A DNA stretch of 64,000 nt. It comes from a phage. The position numbers and the translations under genes were made by a program. A model generated the notes under the pieces. That model had not been told where the DNA came from, did not search any database, and saw only the letters and a program-made list of their open reading frames with translations. Position 1 is the first letter of the stretch. The number at the start of each line of letters is the position of its first letter. Location: the sequence record OZ346158.1; one strand, 5' to 3'. Shown here one piece after another: positions 31,008-39,753 of this stretch.

Positions 31008-32333
31008 ATGAGTAAAACCAAATTAGAACTTACCTGGATAGGTAAAAACGAGCGCAAAAAGTTAGAGCCGCACATTTTGTTAGAAGATTCTAGCAAGTCT
31101 TACCACAGCCAGAAAGTGACCGAAAACGATATTTTTGATAATAAACTGATTTTTGGAGATAACTTATTAGCATTGAAGGCGCTAGAGCAAGAGTACGCAG
31201 GCAAAGTGAAGTGTGTTTACATAGACCCACCATTCAATACCGGGAGGGCTTTTGAGCACTACGATGATAGCCTGGAGCATTCCATTTGGCTGGGCTTAAT
31301 GAGGGATAGGTTAGAAATAATTCGTAATCTTCTAAGTGATGATGGGGTAATATTCGTTCACTTAGATGATTGCGAAATGGCGTATTTAAAAGTTTTGATG
31401 GACGAGATTTTTGGTCGTGCAAATCAGTTAAATACCATATCGATGACCACAAATTCCCCTTCGGGATTTAAGGCAACGGGAGCCACAGTTTTCTCCACAG
31501 CAAACTTTTTGCTTGTATATGCAAAAGATCGCACCCAGAAACCGCTTAACAAAATCTATATACCTAAAGGGTATGATACCGGATATAACAAATACCTATT
31601 AAACCCGGATGATCATTATAAAAATTGGACGTGGTGCGGTATTGCCGATGCGTTTGCAAAGGCCAATGGCTATAAAGATGCAAAAGAAGCCAAGAAAAAA
31701 CTGCCTGACACATTCGATGATGAATTAGCACAATTTGCAATTGATAATGCAGAACGTGTATTTCAATCTGTTGCAATTGGTGGTGGTGCTAAAATAAAGA
31801 GAAAAGAAACTATAGAGAAGTCAAAGAAAGATAGGGATAAGGTTTATGTACATCCAAATGAGGATGTTGAAGGATTTTATATCGCAAATGGTAGGCAAAT
31901 GGTCTTTTACTCCAACAGGCTTTTGGAAATTGACGGTGATATGCAACCTGCGGAACTAATAACTGATGTTTGGACAGACATTAGTTGGAATGGAATAGCA
32001 AATGAAGGCGGCGTTAGTTTCAAAAATGGGAAAAAACCAGAAGCGCTTTTGAAGCGGATTTTCGAAATGTGTACGCGAGAAGGTGATTTGGTATTGGATT
32101 CATTCGGTGGTTCGGGAACTACTGCCGCTGTAGCTCACAAGATGAAAAGACGTTGGATCTCCATCGAGATTGGTGATCATTGCCATACCCATATTATTCC
32201 GCGCTTGGAAAAAGTGATCGATGGGGAAGATCAAGGTGGTATTTCTAAGTCTGTAAACTGGCAAGGTGGTGGTGGCTTCCGTTATTACAAACTTGCCCCG
32301 ACCTTAATTGCGAAAGATAAGTCTGATCAATAA
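31008..32333 (+). CDS. DNA N6-adenine methyltransferase (beta class)
   Basis: 441 aa; catalytic DPPF motif (CVYIDPPFNTG) upstream of SAM-binding motif DSFGGSGTT, the beta-class order; AAGGAGAG RBS. Confidence 0.8.
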   Translation: MSKTKLELTWIGKNERKKLEPHILLEDSSKSYHSQKVTENDIFDNKLIFGDNLLALKALEQEYAGKVKCVYIDPPFNTGRAFEHYDDSLEHSIWLGLMRDRLEIIRNLLSDDGVIFVHLDDCEMAYLKVLMDEIFGRANQLNTISMTTNSPSGFKATGATVFSTANFLLVYAKDRTQKPLNKIYIPKGYDTGYNKYLLNPDDHYKNWTWCGIADAFAKANGYKDAKEAKKKLPDTFDDELAQFAIDNAERVFQSVAIGGGAKIKRKETIEKSKKDRDKVYVHPNEDVEGFYIANGRQMVFYSNRLLEIDGDMQPAELITDVWTDISWNGIANEGGVSFKNGKKPEALLKRIFEMCTREGDLVLDSFGGSGTTAAVAHKMKRRWISIEIGDHCHTHIIPRLEKVIDGEDQGGISKSVNWQGGGGFRYYKLAPTLIAKDKSDQ

Positions 32334-32346
32334 AGAGTACAATCAA

Positions 32347-32652
32347 ATGATGAAACGTTATAAACCATACACTTTTGAAATCGATTTCGAACTTGACGAT
32401 ATGTTCACTGTAGAAGCTCAGGCAGTTGTCCAGTTGCCAGACCCGGAGTGCCGTGATTCTGATGTTGACTATTACGGATTTAGACAGATCACTGATGTGC
32501 ATGTTTACCACAACGGTGAAGAGGTGGACTTCCACCAACTGCCAAACGATATTCGCCACTCAATTTACAAACGTGCAGCCCGTGAACTAGAGTCCTATCT
32601 GGATGCAGCGACGACAGCAGCTGCATTTGCCGAAGAAGTGGGAGGTTTCTGA
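32347..32652 (+). CDS. hypothetical protein
   Basis: ATG at 32347 (MMKRYKPYTF...) after AAAGAG; start uncertain. Confidence 0.45.
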   Translation: MMKRYKPYTFEIDFELDDMFTVEAQAVVQLPDPECRDSDVDYYGFRQITDVHVYHNGEEVDFHQLPNDIRHSIYKRAARELESYLDAATTAAAFAEEVGGF

Positions 32653-33050
32653 TGATTACAGGTGTGAAGATTCTCCAATACCACTTAACCAAATTGGAAG
32701 ATGCTGAAAAAGAGCTTGCAGAAGTTCTGAATAGTGGATATACTTTGCTATCATGCGCCTGCTCAGACACCTACGTTGTGTGGACACTTATCCGGAAGGA
32801 AGAGCCTGCAGGGATCTTGGTGCCAAACCCTAAGATTATTAGTGAGGTGGATGACTATTCCCAGGACGGCCTGCCAGAAGGCTGGGAAGTATGGGAAGGT
32901 GGTGAAAACCCTGCACCAGGTAAGTGGGTAAAATATAAACTACGTAGTGGTGCACAGTACGCTGACTACTCTGATGACCTAGACTGGAGTCATTCTTCAC
33001 CAGGATCGTCTGCAAGTTCATATGATATCGTTGCTTTTCAGGAAGAATAA
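32652..33050 (+). CDS. hypothetical protein
   Basis: 132 aa, ATGA coupling, GGGAGG RBS. Confidence 0.5.
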   Translation: MITGVKILQYHLTKLEDAEKELAEVLNSGYTLLSCACSDTYVVWTLIRKEEPAGILVPNPKIISEVDDYSQDGLPEGWEVWEGGENPAPGKWVKYKLRSGAQYADYSDDLDWSHSSPGSSASSYDIVAFQEE

Positions 33051-33062
33051 GGAGATAGTGTT

Positions 33063-33545
33063 ATGTCAGATTTTATGTGGAAAGTAGGTTACGCAGCTCC
33101 TGAAATGTGTGAGGCTTGCTTTGTGAAAATAGGCCGCGAGGATATCGACAAAGTGATCCTTAAGTTTCGTGATGTGGCTGTGATCGGCAACCGAGTGCTT
33201 AAGCACTTAAAGAATCTGAAGCTCACCAAAAAGAAATTCTTCGGGCTTTTCGAAGAGAAAGTTGATGCTTGGACCCATTGCATTCAGGAAGCTAAATCTC
33301 ACTACAGTGCTATCGTTACCCCAGAACGGGTAGCCAAGATGGAAGGACTCATCAACAGCACAGAGTTTGAGTGTCTGAAAGCTGCACTCGATAGTTATCC
33401 GAAATGCCTCAAGCACTTGGACAAGTATGTAGAAAAGGATGGGGAAATGTATCTCACCCTGGACGCATATTATGAGATGCAAGAAATTTTAAATTTAGAT
33501 TTGACATTGGTATCCACCGAGTATACAATAGGTATCCGGGTTTAA
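33063..33545 (+). CDS. hypothetical protein
   Basis: 160 aa, AAGGAGA RBS; followed by terminator. Confidence 0.55.
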   Translation: MSDFMWKVGYAAPEMCEACFVKIGREDIDKVILKFRDVAVIGNRVLKHLKNLKLTKKKFFGLFEEKVDAWTHCIQEAKSHYSAIVTPERVAKMEGLINSTEFECLKAALDSYPKCLKHLDKYVEKDGEMYLTLDAYYEMQEILNLDLTLVSTEYTIGIRV

Positions 33546-33551
33546 CACTAG

Positions 33552-33580
33552 GCCCTGCCCGAAAGGGTGGGGCTTTTTGC
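33552..33580 (+). terminator. rho-independent terminator (sequence repeated at 45180)
   Basis: GCCCTGCCC-GAAA-GGGTGGGGC hairpin followed by TTTTTGC; same 22-nt hairpin recurs at 45180. Confidence 0.7.
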
Positions 33581-33596
33581 ATTAGGAGACAGCAAA

Positions 33597-34361
33597 TTGA
33601 AATTTATCTACAAAGAACACTACCACAAAGGTGTTGTGTGGAGCCTATTTGACGGATCTGGTGGTGCAGTCATTGACTGGGCAAAAGCTGGATATCTGTG
33701 CCTGTGCTTTAACGCAGAAGGTGCTGACCACGGCAGTTATGCAGAGGTGATCACCGATCATCCAAATATTCACTATGTAGATTATTGGATTGATCCATGG
33801 TTCCCTCAGGAAACTTTCTGCATGTACCCAGCTCCGGACTTTGTTCTTGCATTTCCTCCGTGCACCCACTTAGCGGTGTCAGGTGCTGCACACTTTAAGA
33901 AGAAGCTGGCTAAGGACCCGTTGATCCAGATTAATGCTGTAAAGGATGCTCGGGTTGCAGAAGAGTTGGGAGAGATTTACGATTGCCCGTGGCATGTAGA
34001 GAATCCTGTGGGTGTTATGTCCACACTGTGGCGCAAACCTGATTACCGTTTTCACCCTTCTGACTATGGCGGGTATTTACCGGAGGATGATGTAAACCCC
34101 TGGTTTCCTGAATTTATAGCTCCACGTGATGCCTATCCAAAAATAACTTGCGGCTGGATAGGTAATGGATTTATAATCCCGGCCACAAAACCTGTCCCGC
34201 AAATAGTTGACGCGGTTAGCGGGTATTCCATGCAACACGCCAAGCTGGGTGGAAAGAGTGCAAGAACGAAGATGATCCGAAGCCTCACACCACGTGGCTG
34301 GGCAAAAGCCGTATTCTTAGCAAACGAGCCTGTAGTAAGGAGCAGAATTAATGGGAAGTAA
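33597..34361 (+). CDS. C5-cytosine methyltransferase-like protein (short; PCT in place of PCQ)
   Basis: TTG start 6 nt after AGGAGA; motif I-like VWSLFDGSGGA, motif IV-like AFPPCTHLAVSGA, motif VI-like WHVENPVG. Confidence 0.5.
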   Translation: MKFIYKEHYHKGVVWSLFDGSGGAVIDWAKAGYLCLCFNAEGADHGSYAEVITDHPNIHYVDYWIDPWFPQETFCMYPAPDFVLAFPPCTHLAVSGAAHFKKKLAKDPLIQINAVKDARVAEELGEIYDCPWHVENPVGVMSTLWRKPDYRFHPSDYGGYLPEDDVNPWFPEFIAPRDAYPKITCGWIGNGFIIPATKPVPQIVDAVSGYSMQHAKLGGKSARTKMIRSLTPRGWAKAVFLANEPVVRSRINGK

Positions 34362-36429
34362 ATTTATGGCATCTGCATACAACCGTTTCGGTGAGCCAAA
34401 CCCGAAAGCAACTAAGTATAAAAGTGGGGGAAGTGTGAAACGAGACTATCGTGATGAAAAAGAGGTTGAAACTGTAGAGACTGTTTTAGAAAATACTAAA
34501 ATTGTCCCTGTTCCACAACAAAATATCGGTCTGATGGCTGCACAATATTTTGGTGTGCGATCAGCATTGTCTCAAGAAGACGGTGTGACAGTTACTGCAA
34601 CATATTTCCCATATTACGACCGCTACGGAAATCTGTCAGGTTTCAAAAAGCGTGACTGGACGATTCCTAAAGAGCAAAGGGGCCATTTCTCAGTTGTTGG
34701 CATAGTAAAGGCTAACTCTCAGATGTTTGGGCAAAAGCTGTGTGCATCTTCCAACAACCGTAAGCAAATTAACGTTTGTGAGGGGGAAGGTGATGTTATT
34801 GCAGCATGGCAGGCTGCATATCAGATACAAGTAAAAGGGATTCTCACCAACGCTAAAGCCCCGGCAAAGGTGAAGCAGTGGGCTAAAGAGGTCCAGGACG
34901 GGATCGATGCAGTTATCAACGGTGGTGATCTGGCAGGAAAACCCTGCCTACCTTTTGTTGGAATTAACTGTGGATGTGCAAACGCAGTAGATACTTTTGC
35001 AAACAATGAGAAGTTTATCCGTAGCTATGGAACAGTTGTGCTGGCAATGGATAACGATGCAGCTAACGAGGTAGAGAAGCAAAAACACGTCATTAAAGGT
35101 GTCGAGGCCACGCACAATATCGCAGCATTTTTGATGGCTGATAACGTTTACCACGTAGAATACCCTGGTGAAGTAAACGACCCTGACGGTGTAAAAGATA
35201 TCCGAGACATGCTGAAGGCTAAAAAGCTGGAAGATATTGTCAACATGTTCCGGCATCCTGTTAAATATGTGCCTGATGCTGTGTCGGATTTAGAAGACTT
35301 CTCTATCGAGTCTTTGCGGAAAAAGACTTCCAACGGGGTAGATATCAGCGCAGAGTTCCCAAAACTGCAAAAAATGCTAAAAGGCTTGCACAAAGGTACA
35401 CTCGTAATGCTTACAGGCCCATCAGGTGGCGGTAAAACAACCGTAGCTAAAAAACTGGAACACTGTATTGCAAGATACCTAATGGACCCGACATGCCCGA
35501 AGGCTGATGACTATGAAGAGGATGATCGTCTATGTATGATCCATCTTGAGGAGGACCCAGAGGAAGCAATTAACTCCTTGTATGCAAACCAGTTAGGGTT
35601 TGATGTTAAAGAGTTTGTTGAAGATCCTAGCCAGTTTTTAACTGATCAAGAACACGCAGAGATTCATCAGTCATGGGCAAAAGCTGGAAAAATCAAAGTG
35701 TTCAAACATTTCGGGTCTATTCCGGTGGATGAGTTGATTACCAAGCTTAAGCAAATGGTTTGCCTGTACCATTGCCGTTATATTGTGCTGGATCACCTGT
35801 CCATGGTAATTTCAGGGCTTAATGTTAAGGATGAGCGAAAAGAACTGGACATGGCTATGACCCAACTGGCTGCGTTTTGTAAGCAGTTTAATGTGTTTAT
35901 CTTGGTGATCGCTCACCTCAAACGTACAGAGATTGTGCCTCCTAAGGACAAGGATGGTAACCCGTTACCTTTCTGGTATCCTGTGCGAAAAGAGAATTTG
36001 CGAGGATCGGCGGGGCTTGAACAGTTGAGTTGGGTAGTCATAGGTGTCGAGGCCGAAGAAATGGTGGATCGTTCTCGTGGACGTGTCCGTCTGGTAGGTC
36101 TTAAAAACCGTCCAGCAAAAACTCTAGGTATTGCTGACACTTTGGTTATGGACCCGCACACAGGTAAGTTCCATGATGCCAGTAATTGGTACTGGGACAA
36201 AGAAATGCAAATGTTTACAGACGGAGAAGGTGGGGAGGTTGTTTGGAGACCTCAGGCTATGTTTGAGGATCAGGAGCATGCAGTTGTAGAAACACCTATG
36301 GGCAAGGTTGTGGCTGATAAGGTTGTAACACCCACTGTCAAGCCTATTGACACGCAGGAAGACCTCCAATACGATGATCCATCCTCTGATCCGGTCCCTG
36401 GTTTTGAGGATGATGAAACACCTTTTTAA
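34351..36429 (+). CDS. primase-helicase (T7 gp4-like)
   Basis: 692 aa; TOPRIM-like CEGEGDVIAAWQA; helicase Walker A LTGPSGGGKTT and Walker B YIVLDHLSMV, with IAHLKR downstream. Confidence 0.8.
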   Translation: MGSKFMASAYNRFGEPNPKATKYKSGGSVKRDYRDEKEVETVETVLENTKIVPVPQQNIGLMAAQYFGVRSALSQEDGVTVTATYFPYYDRYGNLSGFKKRDWTIPKEQRGHFSVVGIVKANSQMFGQKLCASSNNRKQINVCEGEGDVIAAWQAAYQIQVKGILTNAKAPAKVKQWAKEVQDGIDAVINGGDLAGKPCLPFVGINCGCANAVDTFANNEKFIRSYGTVVLAMDNDAANEVEKQKHVIKGVEATHNIAAFLMADNVYHVEYPGEVNDPDGVKDIRDMLKAKKLEDIVNMFRHPVKYVPDAVSDLEDFSIESLRKKTSNGVDISAEFPKLQKMLKGLHKGTLVMLTGPSGGGKTTVAKKLEHCIARYLMDPTCPKADDYEEDDRLCMIHLEEDPEEAINSLYANQLGFDVKEFVEDPSQFLTDQEHAEIHQSWAKAGKIKVFKHFGSIPVDELITKLKQMVCLYHCRYIVLDHLSMVISGLNVKDERKELDMAMTQLAAFCKQFNVFILVIAHLKRTEIVPPKDKDGNPLPFWYPVRKENLRGSAGLEQLSWVVIGVEAEEMVDRSRGRVRLVGLKNRPAKTLGIADTLVMDPHTGKFHDASNWYWDKEMQMFTDGEGGEVVWRPQAMFEDQEHAVVETPMGKVVADKVVTPTVKPIDTQEDLQYDDPSSDPVPGFEDDETPF

Positions 36430-36487: not shown

Positions 36488-38911
36488 ATGAGCATGTGGT
36501 CGTTCGACTTTGAGTCATCCGGTTTGCTGGAAGATCCAGATCTTTATTATCACTGCGGCCTGTTTAAAGAGCTGAATAAGAACCGTTTTATGCTGTTCCT
36601 TCCTCTAAATGACCGCACACACTACTCCGAAGAGGATATAGAGAAGGCTAAGAACTTTATTCTGGCAAAGAAAACTCTTCATAAAGATTTTGAAGTTCGC
36701 ATAGCAGATTTTTCGGAGTTGGAAGGTTGGCTTACAGGCAATTCCGACTGGTCACCAACAGCTTTGAACTGCCATAACTGCTACAGTTATGACTTTATGC
36801 TGATGGAAAGATTATCCGGTATTCATTTTGATATGTTCCGTGATCCTAAATGCATGGGGACTATCAACGACCACCAGGTTAACCTGTTTGATACGTTGGC
36901 TATGAGCCGAATCTTGTGGCCTGATCGCCCTTTACCAAAAGGTTGTCCGGACGCTGTATTCAACCCGGTTACTAAGAAAATGCAACCTGTTGGTCCTCAC
37001 GGCCTTATGGCATGGGGCTACGCCCTTGGTAACCAGAAAGTTCAAATTGATGACTGGCGCGATCTTCCGCTGTGGAAATATGTGGATCGTGTGTTCGAGG
37101 ACGTTATCATCCAGGAGTTGCTCTGGAAAGAGTTGGTAGCGGAATCAAAAGGTGTATTCTACGGCAAATCTGACATGCAGAACTTTATGTATGACCCTGC
37201 CAAAGAGAAGCCTAAAGGATTCAAGAAGATTACCTGGAAGAATGCATTACGCCGAGGCATGCTGCAGCATTTCCTGATGGAGCTGCAGGCTCGACAGGGT
37301 GTGTATTTCGACATAGATGGGGCTATTGCTTTACGTGACCGCTGCGATGCGTGGATGAAAGAGATCGCTGATCGTGTTGAACCACAACTTCCTTTAAAAG
37401 AGTTATCAATGTCTCAGCGGCCTAAGTTCCCTGAAAAGCCGTTTAACCAGGATGGGACAATCTCCAATAATGGTTGGAAATGGTTAAAAGATAAGCTTGG
37501 CTATCCTGTAGACATGAGCGCTTTAGAATTCAAAGCCCCGCCTAAGCGAGCATTTACCTCCACAGGAGATGTCAGCAAGATGGGGATAAAATGGTGCGAA
37601 GAGATGGGCTGCAAAGACCCCGACAAGATGGCTGATTTCTTGAGAGGTTATATTAAGGGCACCTCCACACCACAACCTTTACCTAAAGAGCTGATGGATC
37701 AGGCAATAAGTGATCTGCAGCAGAAGCGAATGCCTGACTGCAAGATACCTATGAAAATCAGCAATCAGGACGACATTAAGCGATACCTGATCAGTGCTGG
37801 TTGGCTTCCGACAATGTGGAGAACTAAGGATGTAACTAAGGACAGCAAGAAGAAAGCTCTACCTGATGCAGATGTTGATGCACGAGTATATGCATACATG
37901 GACGAGCTTTTAGAGTCAGAGTATTGTGACCTAATTATCAACTTCTGGAACAAAACTGATGCTAAGTTTCAGACAACAGTGCACAAGTTCCGAAGCTTTC
38001 CTAACTCCGAAAGGATTAAAAAGGAAGTGTTCGGGAAAATACGCAGAAAAGCCAGGGCACTTATTACTTCTCCGCAACTGAAAGATACGTTTGGACACCT
38101 ATGTCCGAATCTTGAAAAATTGAACGGAGAGATGGCTAAAGATATCGTCTTGTGGTTATCATTGCGAAACCGCAGATCGGTCCTTGATCCAATCAAGGAG
38201 GATAAGGTTGATACTGGTCTTCTTAATCACCCACGTTTGAAGATTGACCATAAGCTTCCTGCTAAAAGCTCTGGATTAACAAACACTTCCCGACAGAAAC
38301 ACAGTATTTGTGCAAACATGCCTAAACCATCTCCTAAAGTGGTTATGGGTAAAGAGATGCGTAGCTTGTGGGGTGTTCCTCCTGGATACTTTGAGATCGG
38401 TATTGACGGGTCCAACTTAGAGCAGCTTATCGGGGCTTGGGGTGCCTTTGAGTTCGACAACGGCTTGTACTATGATGTTGTAAGTAACGGGGACGCACAC
38501 CAAAACAATGCTGAGGCATATACAAAAGTAGCAGGCAGAGAGGTGTCTCGTAACGACGGTAAACCTATCACGTATGGGGTTATGTACGGGGCACAAAAAG
38601 ATAAAGTTGCAGATATGCTGGATATCTCCCCAGAGTTGGGGCAAAGGGTGATCGATGCACTTTGGGATGCCAACCCCGGTCTTAAGGGGCGCAAAGAGGA
38701 TCTGGAGAAATTCTGGGAAGCAACGGGTAAGAAGTTTATCTACTCTTTTGATGGTCATGCCATCTGGACCCGATCTAAACACTCTTTACTTAATGCATAC
38801 CAACAGAATGGTGGTGCATCGCTGTGTGACTTGGTTGGGATACTTATGCACCACCAAATGGTGAAGCGTGGGTGGTACGATGAAGGTGTTCGTCGTATTA
38901 TTTATTACCAT
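36488..38911 (+). CDS. DNA polymerase family A, exon 1 (3'-5' exo and most of pol domain)
   Basis: Exo I-like FDFESSG; motif A-like YFEIGIDGSNLEQLIGA; motif B-like RNDGKPITYGVMYGAQKDKVAD; reading frame ends ...IIYYH, then K and stop, i.e. just before the expected motif C HDE. Confidence 0.8.
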
Positions 38912-39753
38912 AAATAACATTGTGGCTTCGTGCAGTGATGCACGTCGAAAACCTCTTTAATTGACGGGAAGGCTAAGTTGACTTTTACACCTAAACATGG
39001 TAAAAGCTCAATATGCTAATCCGCAGCGAAGACTAAAGGGGTGTAGTTAAAATGGCTAGATCAGTTGATTATCACGGATATACCGTGTTTGATGATGGAA
39101 CAATACCTTTATCGAAACGTGATCATACAACAATGTTCTGTTTTGATAATGGTCGAGGTTACCTTTGCGTAACCATGTTCATCGAGGGGAAGCAGTGCAC
39201 AAAAGGTGTCCACCACTTGGTTGCTGAATGCTTTGTATCAAACCCTGATCCTGAAAGGCTCACATGGGTGAACCATAAGGACGGAAACAAATACAACAAT
39301 GCATACTGGAACCTTGAATGGACCACCCCTGGTGGAAATATCAAACACGCTTATGATAATGACCTCAGAGTAAGGCCAGTCGGTGAGTATAATGCCAACG
39401 CTGTACTGACCGAGGATGAGGTAACGGAGATTTGCGAACTGTTACAAAGTGGTTTACGACAATGCGAGATTAGGGATCTTGGGTATCCTTATGAGACGGT
39501 CAGAGCCATAAAGCAAAGAAGACAGTGGAAACATATCTCTAAAAACTACACCTGGTAGTAACGTTCAGAGACTATCGAAAGCATAGCGCCAACATAAATT
39601 GGTGCGAAGAAGCGAGTAGAGTAGGCCAGCAAGTGCGGTCGAAATGGGAGGTGCCTTGGTAACAAGGTAGTGAGATAGTCCGATCCATACAGGAAACTGT
39701 ATGGCTGTGCACGTAATGGTGCGGGGTAGCTTAACGACCTACCTGAACTATTG
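38912..39753 (+). ncRNA. putative group I self-splicing intron interrupting the DNA polymerase gene
   Basis: 5' exon ends in U, intron ends in G; P1 possible between exon CCAU+AA and UUGUGG at 38920..38925 (U-G wobble at splice site); P2-like hairpin CGTGCA-GTGA-TGCACG; P7-like AGACUA (39568) / UAGUC (39676); P9-like hairpin CCATACAG-GAAA-CTGTATGG; contains HNH ORF. Confidence 0.7.
39052..39558 (+). CDS. HNH homing endonuclease (intron-encoded)
   Basis: 168 aa; HNH motif HHLVAECF...VNHKDGNKYNNAYWNLEW; lies inside the putative intron. Confidence 0.8.
   Translation: MARSVDYHGYTVFDDGTIPLSKRDHTTMFCFDNGRGYLCVTMFIEGKQCTKGVHHLVAECFVSNPDPERLTWVNHKDGNKYNNAYWNLEWTTPGGNIKHAYDNDLRVRPVGEYNANAVLTEDEVTEICELLQSGLRQCEIRDLGYPYETVRAIKQRRQWKHISKNYTW

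Follow-up and report, generated by a model that had tools for sequence, protein, structure and literature searches.

A short phage protein with a Pro-Cys-Thr motif is a predicted orphan cytosine-C5 DNA methyltransferase of the mini-Dcm family

The window analysed here is a stretch of 64,000 nucleotides of phage DNA (sequence record OZ346158.1), in which one short open reading frame carries motifs of cytosine-C5 methyltransferases but has a Pro-Cys-Thr where a Pro-Cys-Gln would be expected. A sequence-only reading of the window had taken this substitution as an oddity that might point to unusual chemistry. The question is thus whether the gene encodes an ordinary DNA methyltransferase (MTase), an enzyme with another product or another substrate, or no enzyme at all. 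We consider it likely, with a probability of roughly 0.8, that the gene encodes a SAM-dependent orphan enzyme which methylates cytosine in DNA at C5 and belongs to the phage "mini-Dcm" family (PHROG 757); the protein is little more than a catalytic Rossmann-type domain. The gene itself is already known: it is annotated publicly, and its family is large and partly characterised.

The window derives from a Vequintavirus, i.e. an rV5-like E. coli phage. At the nucleotide level, Escherichia phage MaxBurger (Bas54) is 99.5% identical to the region, and about 110 further rV5-like phages of the same genus reach 97-98%. The window protein shares 99.6% of its amino acids with MaxBurger bas54_0074, which has identical CDS limits and is labelled "Dcm-like C5 cytosine methyltransferase" in GenBank. 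Other rV5-like records call the gene "Dcm", "putative site specific DNA methylase", "DNA methyltransferase" or "hypothetical protein". In MaxBurger, a "putative N6 adenine methyltransferase" and three small hypothetical genes lie 5' of bas54_0074, and an overlapping primase/helicase gene and a DNA polymerase gene lie 3' of it. For other genera of the Vequintavirinae, the pairing of an N6-adenine methylase with a cytosine methylase detected by HHpred has already been described (PMC7344957, PMC11370258).

The DNA polymerase gene of the window (36488-39558, plus strand) is interrupted. An 809-aa ORF runs to position 38917, and the next one (39052-39558), with 168 aa, has the size of a homing endonuclease. 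MaxBurger has a single polymerase gene of 925 aa, so that the window represents a mosaic Vequintavirus other than MaxBurger. The phages HeinrichReichert, APECc02, ime and isim show the same arrangement of polymerase and homing endonuclease as the window. About 16 records named "Campylobacter phage" (host C. jejuni; MG065647, MG065690, MG065669 and others) are also about 98% identical to the region; these GenBank records are probably mislabelled or contaminant assemblies.

The features of the locus are collected in Table 1. In the family alignment, the N-terminus of homologue P0002 (MDFIYK) falls at the same position as the TTG start of the window gene. A longer reading frame from a GTG at 33567 was considered and rejected: this codon lies within the hairpin, has no ribosome-binding site, and conflicts both with the N-termini of the homologues and with the GenBank annotation of MaxBurger, the nearest relative. 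The sigma-70-like sequence lies inside the 3' end of the ORF at 33063-33545, the hairpin comes directly after this ORF, and the ribosome-binding site and the start of the methyltransferase gene follow. This order of promoter, hairpin and gene is odd. The hairpin could be a leader or attenuator, or the terminator of the upstream gene with read-through, and the putative promoter may possibly drive the methyltransferase and replication genes. Downstream, the methyltransferase gene is followed by the overlapping primase/helicase gene and then by the DNA polymerase gene, which together form a replication module. Methyltransferase and primase/helicase genes belong to one transcription unit and are likely to be translationally coupled. 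Since the gene sits in this module, it is presumably expressed during phage DNA replication.

Table 1. Coordinates of the methyltransferase gene, its motifs and the surrounding features. Positions are those of the window, except for the two-methylase module, which is given in the loci of three other phages.
Feature	Position	Strand	Remarks
Orphan N6-adenine DNA MTase, 441 aa, type III Mod-like	31008..32333	+	PF01555 E 1.5e-42; PADLOC MTase_III E 7e-205
Sigma-70-like promoter TTGACA-17-TACAAT, 11/12	33501..33529	+	Consensus match only
GC-rich hairpin with T-run, terminator-like	33550..33575	+	Between promoter and MTase start
Shine-Dalgarno AGGAGA	33584..33589	+	7 nt 5' of the TTG; read directly from the sequence
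Predicted mini C5-cytosine DNA methyltransferase CDS	33597..34361	+	254 codons, TTG start, TAA stop; ORF and translation
Motif I LFDGSGGA, aa 17-24	33645..33668	+	FxGxG cofactor-binding loop
Motif IV FPPCTHLAVSGA, aa 86-97	33852..33887	+	Catalytic Pro-Cys; Cys89 predicted nucleophile; Thr90 for the usual Gln
Motif VI HVENPVG, aa 133-139	33993..34013	+	ENV-type Glu135-Asn136
Conserved mostly-coil stretch GGYLPEDD..FP..I.PRDAYPKITCGWIGNGF, aa 158-192	34068..34172	+	Occupies the place of motif VIII and TRD
Motif X equivalent KMIRSLTPRGWAKAVF, aa 225-240	34269..34316	+	Invariant Arg228-Ser229 for canonical Gly-Asn
DnaB-type primase/helicase gene	34351..36429	+	ATG 34351 overlaps the last 11 nt of the MTase gene
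Two-methylase module	L008:1586-3636, L009:2342-3762, L010:1203-3711		Arthrobacter Coral, Klebsiella ST15-VIM1phi2.1, Escherichia Skarpretter

The three motifs on which the sequence-only reading was built (LFDGSGGA, FPPCTHLAVSGA and HVENPVG) were all found in the translation and in the canonical order of C5-methyltransferases. Motif I is aligned by HMMER to SLFSGAGG of M.HaeIII and to SLFDGIATG of DNMT3B, and by hhalign to FAGGGG of CmoX. Motif IV aligns to SPCNDLS of DNMT3B (HMMER, with PPCTDLA as the family sequence) and to SPPCSAFSVAG of CmoX (hhalign). Among close relatives, P87, P88 and C89 are invariant and T90 is at least 90% conserved, with Asp in a few sequences. E135, N136 and P137 are invariant in the family (compare AENVKG in CmoX, HaeIII and HhaI), and C89, E135 and N136 remain invariant down to 35% identity.

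The remaining motifs deviate, namely II (N-x-E/D...DHG), VIII (Y-x-K-x-T) and X (R-S). When hhalign was run against CmoX alone or against a canonical alignment of six sequences, motifs I to IV were aligned confidently, and forced longer or alternative registers of the C-terminal part were unreliable; the correspondences of motifs VIII and X therefore rest on gapless matches made by eye. For motif VIII (QxRxR), where hhalign is unreliable, the by-eye match is Y180-x-K182-x-T184 followed by a beta-strand. The GGYLPEDD..PRD part of the coil stretch around it is missing from the shortest family members (Arthrobacter and Klebsiella phage proteins). For motif X, the match is gapless to M.HaeIII YKMIGNAVPVNLAYEI and to CmoX ERVGRMVPPLMMKAIA, with the family sequence K-M-I-R-S-L-T-P-R-G-[FW]-A against Y-K-M-I-G-N-A-V-P-V-N-L-A of M.HaeIII, and a second, low-confidence hhalign alignment gave the same register. 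The Gly-Asn of canonical motif X, which contacts the cofactor, is absent: R228-S229 stands against G-N in HaeIII and G-R in CmoX. This Arg-Ser is a second deviation, which the sequence-only reading did not mention. DNMT3A, B and C have G-R-S-W-S-V-P at this place (DNMT3A GRSWSVP), so that motif X varies among true C5-methyltransferases.

Profile searches for the family gave a divided result. In the DNA_methylase search proposed with the sequence-only reading, the window protein itself had no PF00145 match in Pfam even at E ≤ 10; of its close relatives (51-80% identical), 15 of 22 matched PF00145 at E ≤ 1. Three of them (P0054, P0070 and P0072) exceed the gathering score of 22 bits, over profile positions 4-94 only, the N-terminal third with motifs I to IV. 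NCBIfam had no match to the window protein, and PADLOC reported nothing for the C5 enzyme. The match to PHROG 757 ("DNA methyltransferase"), by comparison, covers residues 2-251 with E 1.1e-86. A profile of the family found only DNMT3B and M.HaeIII among PDB sequences, at sub-threshold E values of 0.14-0.7 and with motifs I and IV aligned, and a search of the PDB with the single sequence gave noise and a marginal match to motif I of HaeIII. With a few aligned canonical and CmoX-type phage C5-methyltransferases as target, hhalign gave E 1.8e-5 with a probability of 78%.

The fold is in accordance with these matches. The AlphaFold2 model, for which the family alignment served as input, is confident (mean pLDDT 83.4, pTM 0.85), and all 50 of the 50 Foldseek matches listed from the PDB are catalytic domains of DNMT3A, B or C (best E 1e-6). 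In this model the catalytic-domain fold is present, with about 195 of the 254 residues superposing on a C5-methyltransferase catalytic domain; the least confident segment is the motif-X region, with pLDDT 55-62 for aa 211-230. A separate target-recognition domain (TRD) between motifs VIII and IX is absent; in its place, aa 161-213 contain a conserved stretch that is mostly coil. The earlier description as a short C5-methyltransferase of about 255 aa without a TRD was thus correct, the exact length being 254 aa. The family member of Arthrobacter phage Coral is shorter still (216 aa) and has lost most of the coil stretch. The family is large: 3,530 homologues were found in one search, 1,502 phage records matched in another, and a third gave 2,021 clusters at 50% identity, mostly 210-260 aa long. 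In distant phages, a mini C5-methyltransferase gene was seen directly beside, or two genes away from, that of a second DNA methyltransferase, and this two-methylase module recurs across hosts (Table 1).

To place the Pro-Cys-Thr, 1.84 billion cluster representatives were searched and the 150 best of them inspected. Motif IV was matched in 96 of them, as xxC-T in 85, PPC-D/E in 9 and xxC-Q in 1, and Arg-Ser was found in 89 of the 150. The threonine that had been singled out as an oddity is therefore the norm of the family, and the window protein carries all of its hallmarks (PPC-T, ENP and I-R-S-x-T-P). Nor is the Gln a defining residue of motif IV, because DNMT3B has Asn and CmoX has Ser at this place. 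In a small alignment (A3: L007, L011-L015), the residue that follows the Cys varies together with the one in motif X: PCQ occurs with GN and PC[S/P/A] with G[R/L/M]. Among the full-length phage C5-methyltransferases, the former combination is seen in Nostoc N1 and Fusobacterium Fnu1 and the latter in the CmoX clade, two members of which have Leu or Met at the "signature" Arg350. In Streptomyces phage TurkishDelight, the gene for such a methyltransferase stands in a row between those for ParB and for a protein with a glutamine-amidotransferase domain.

Functional evidence comes from an orthologue. Phage K42 is 95% identical to KarlJaspers/Bas06, and mutants of it that escape retron Ec86 have been isolated; four of four had mutations affecting a 711-bp gene for a "Dcm-like C5 cytosine methyltransferase", two with a disrupted dcm and two with a base change 9 bp 5' of the start codon (bioRxiv 10.1101/2023.08.16.553469). 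Expression of K42 Dcm was toxic only in the presence of Ec86, and 34 of 35 Ec86-sensitive phages encode Dcm (same preprint). By LC-MS with a 5-methylcytosine (5mC) standard, 5mC on Ec86 msDNA was high with wild-type Dcm and low with a C82A/E128A/K175A/K176A mutant or the empty vector; 5mC was the only modification targeted, and the strain was the dcm+ MG1655 (bioRxiv 10.1101/2023.08.16.553469). In that work CCWGG was taken over from E. coli Dcm as the presumed target, its sole support being the loss of defence upon mutation of CCTGG in the msDNA (bioRxiv 10.1101/2023.08.16.553469). The 711-bp gene is bas06_0055 of Bas06, whose product shares 53% identity with the window protein over 235 aa (BLASTP, E 4e-86). 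C82, E128 and K175 of K42 Dcm correspond to C89, E135 and K182 here, and K176 to Ile183. The K42/Bas06 enzyme has the same PPCT and IRSLTPRG, so that a protein with these motifs has been shown to form ordinary 5-methylcytosine. Unusual chemistry thus lacks support: an orthologue with identical PPCT yielded 5mC by LC-MS, and the DNMT3 enzymes with their PC-N are bona fide methyltransferases. In the literature we found no methylome or 5mC mapping of rV5-like phages and no biochemical specificity for the mini-Dcm family, and the Drexlerviridae reference PMC6563267 held no relevant data.

Other readings have to be weighed against this one. The family with PCT and Arg-Ser might use carboxy-SAM made by the host CmoA, with or without SAM, and thus produce 5-carboxymethylcytosine in the manner of the phage enzyme CmoX or of the engineered M.MpeI N374K. 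The window family does lack both the Gln and the Asn, the residues that co-vary in the comparison with CmoX, and in E. coli the host CmoA could substitute for a phage-encoded one. We nevertheless hold this reading to be highly improbable, since the orthologue with identical motifs made 5mC and lost this in the active-site mutant, and since DNMT3A, B and C, the best structural matches, combine PC-N with G-R-S and are plain SAM methyltransferases. The residues themselves also fit poorly, with F86 for the Ser of SPPC and with Ser229, not Arg, at the R350/N304 position, Arg228 lying one residue earlier. Membership in the CmoX family was accordingly rejected on the SPPC and R350 signature of PMC12783734, in a register set by eye and by a low-confidence hhalign alignment. 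In the part of MaxBurger that is collinear with the window, the annotation contains no cmoA- or cmoY-like gene. The Coral member has both PPCT and Arg-Ser, and no cmoA-like gene is present in the Coral genome; production of Cx-SAM is not expected in the Gram-positive host of this phage. A broader variant of the idea supposes that a remodelled cofactor pocket in the mini C5-methyltransferases with PC-T and R-S accepts carboxy-SAM besides SAM, giving some 5-carboxymethylcytosine in cmoA+ enterobacteria, or else that such an enzyme without a TRD reads a motif much shorter than CCWGG or different from it. It is based on the loss of both residues that co-vary in the CmoX clade and on the invariant Arg beside the cofactor-contacting position, and we regard it as very unlikely.

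The missing TRD would also be explained if the physiological substrate were something other than double-stranded phage DNA, for example RNA or tRNA, the DNMT2 case, or else DNA in single-stranded or hairpin form. This is highly unlikely as well, given that matches of the DNMT2 type score below those to DNA methyltransferases, that the gene is part of a module for DNA replication and, across phages, has DNA N6-methyltransferase genes as neighbours, and that the methylated stem of the msDNA is double-stranded DNA. The absence of a Pfam match, the degenerate motifs II, VIII and X and the low confidence of the modelled motif-X region (pLDDT 55-62, aa 211-230) could finally be taken as signs of an MTase-like protein that has no catalytic activity or acts as a regulator, in the way that DNMT3L serves DNMT3A, or of a DNA-binding factor. 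This appears extremely unlikely: thousands of sequences retain the catalytic Cys, the Glu of ENP and the glycine-rich cofactor loop, and the orthologue lost its activity when C82, E128 and K175, which are conserved here, were mutated together with K176 (Ile183 here).

An active C5-methyltransferase thus remains the preferred reading. By homology with other C5-methyltransferases, the target cytosine would be flipped out of the helix and Cys89 of the Pro-Cys would attack its C6, while Glu135 of the ENP motif would protonate N3. SAM, held by the FDGSGG loop, would then donate its methyl group to C5, and beta-elimination would release the 5-methylcytosine. The enzyme would in this way mark the phage DNA and, incidentally, also that of the host. 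For the window protein itself we infer activity, expression timing and biological role. The likely benefit would be protection against restriction enzymes with a methylated cytosine in their site; a potential cost is the one documented for the orthologue, where methylation of msDNA leads to abortive infection by retron Ec86 (Eco1).

Protection from restriction is a plausible role, yet an unproven one, because the BASEL study reported the Vequintavirinae as "exceptionally susceptible" to the restriction-modification (RM) systems it tested; in the Drexlerviridae, the same study saw no simple link between methyltransferase genes and resistance to restriction. Given this high sensitivity of the Vequintavirinae, any protective role would be narrow at best. 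None of these test systems is known to recognise CCWGG or GATC, so that protection against RM systems of this kind would barely have been probed there. In k-mer statistics, CCWGG shows neither avoidance nor enrichment in the window (about 67 sites, z -1.7), which is uninformative on the target. Strong under-representation over the whole window is seen for GTAC, with about 125 sites where about 203 are expected (z -7.7), and for CTAG (z -8.6); GATC (about 326 sites) is not avoided. None of these statistics reveals the target of the C5 enzyme.

The presence of an N6-adenine methyltransferase nearby, which the sequence-only reading had noted, was borne out by the Pfam and PADLOC matches (PF01555, MTase_III); it is an enzyme separate from the C5-methyltransferase. 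Three small ORFs of 114, 132 and 160 aa (32308-33545, plus strand) lie between the two genes; Pfam has no match for them, and MaxBurger lists them as "hypothetical protein". In Bas51, another member of the Vequintavirinae, an N6-adenine methyltransferase methylates GATC and triggers the retrons Asa1 and Squ1, and T83P was reported as a loss-of-function mutation (PMC12548924). The N6-methyltransferase of the window has no Thr at position 83, the nearest being T78 in DPPFNTG. Both kinds of phage methyltransferase are thus documented as retron triggers, mini-Dcm for Ec86 and the N6-methyltransferase of Bas51 for Asa1 and Squ1.

The value of this locus as a discovery is small, as the gene is annotated, belongs to one of the commonest families of phage methyltransferases and has a functionally studied orthologue. 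Since Pfam and NCBIfam miss the family, automated pipelines often call its members "hypothetical protein". As a known type of trigger for retron Ec86/Eco1, the gene matters for the range of hosts that rV5-like therapeutic phages can infect. How a C5-methyltransferase of 216-254 aa reads DNA without a TRD is a modest but testable question.

Among known systems, bas54_0074 of MaxBurger is essentially the same gene with the same neighbours, and there is no substantive difference in the gene. The Dcm of K42/Bas06 shares PPCT, ENP, Y-x-K, IRSLTPRG, the lack of a TRD and the approximate size (236 against 254 aa) with the window protein, which has extensions of 9 aa at the N-terminus and 11 aa at the C-terminus. 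K42/Bas06 is a siphovirus of the Drexlerviridae, whereas the window belongs to a Vequintavirus, i.e. a myovirus. SpCmoX (PDB 8YF3; PMC12783734) is more distant: it has 372 aa, a TRD, SPPC-S and G-R(350) and is encoded together with CmoA and CmoY, whereas the corresponding motifs of the window protein are FPPC-T and R-S(229), and cmoA or cmoY neighbours are missing from the annotation of the collinear MaxBurger region. The SpCmoX sequence taken from the S-B43 genome matches 8YF3 end to end (E 3e-252).

The E. coli Dcm/M.EcoRII type, after which the family is named, is no closer to the window protein than other C5-methyltransferases (13% identity to the structure of Shigella Dcm). Enzymes of this type have the canonical PCQ and GN motifs. 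The solved chains of Shigella Dcm comprise 410-482 residues with a full TRD; the 254 aa of the window protein include no TRD of the Dcm type for CCWGG specificity. The catalytic domains of eukaryotic DNMT3A, 3B and 3C are only 13-15% identical to the window protein, with a sub-threshold sequence match (E 0.14), and DNMT3 enzymes form dimers or tetramers, target CpG and carry regulatory domains. The phage family resembles DNMT3 in having no Gln in motif IV, an Arg-Ser in motif X and a minimal TRD, and DNMT3 is its best structural match.
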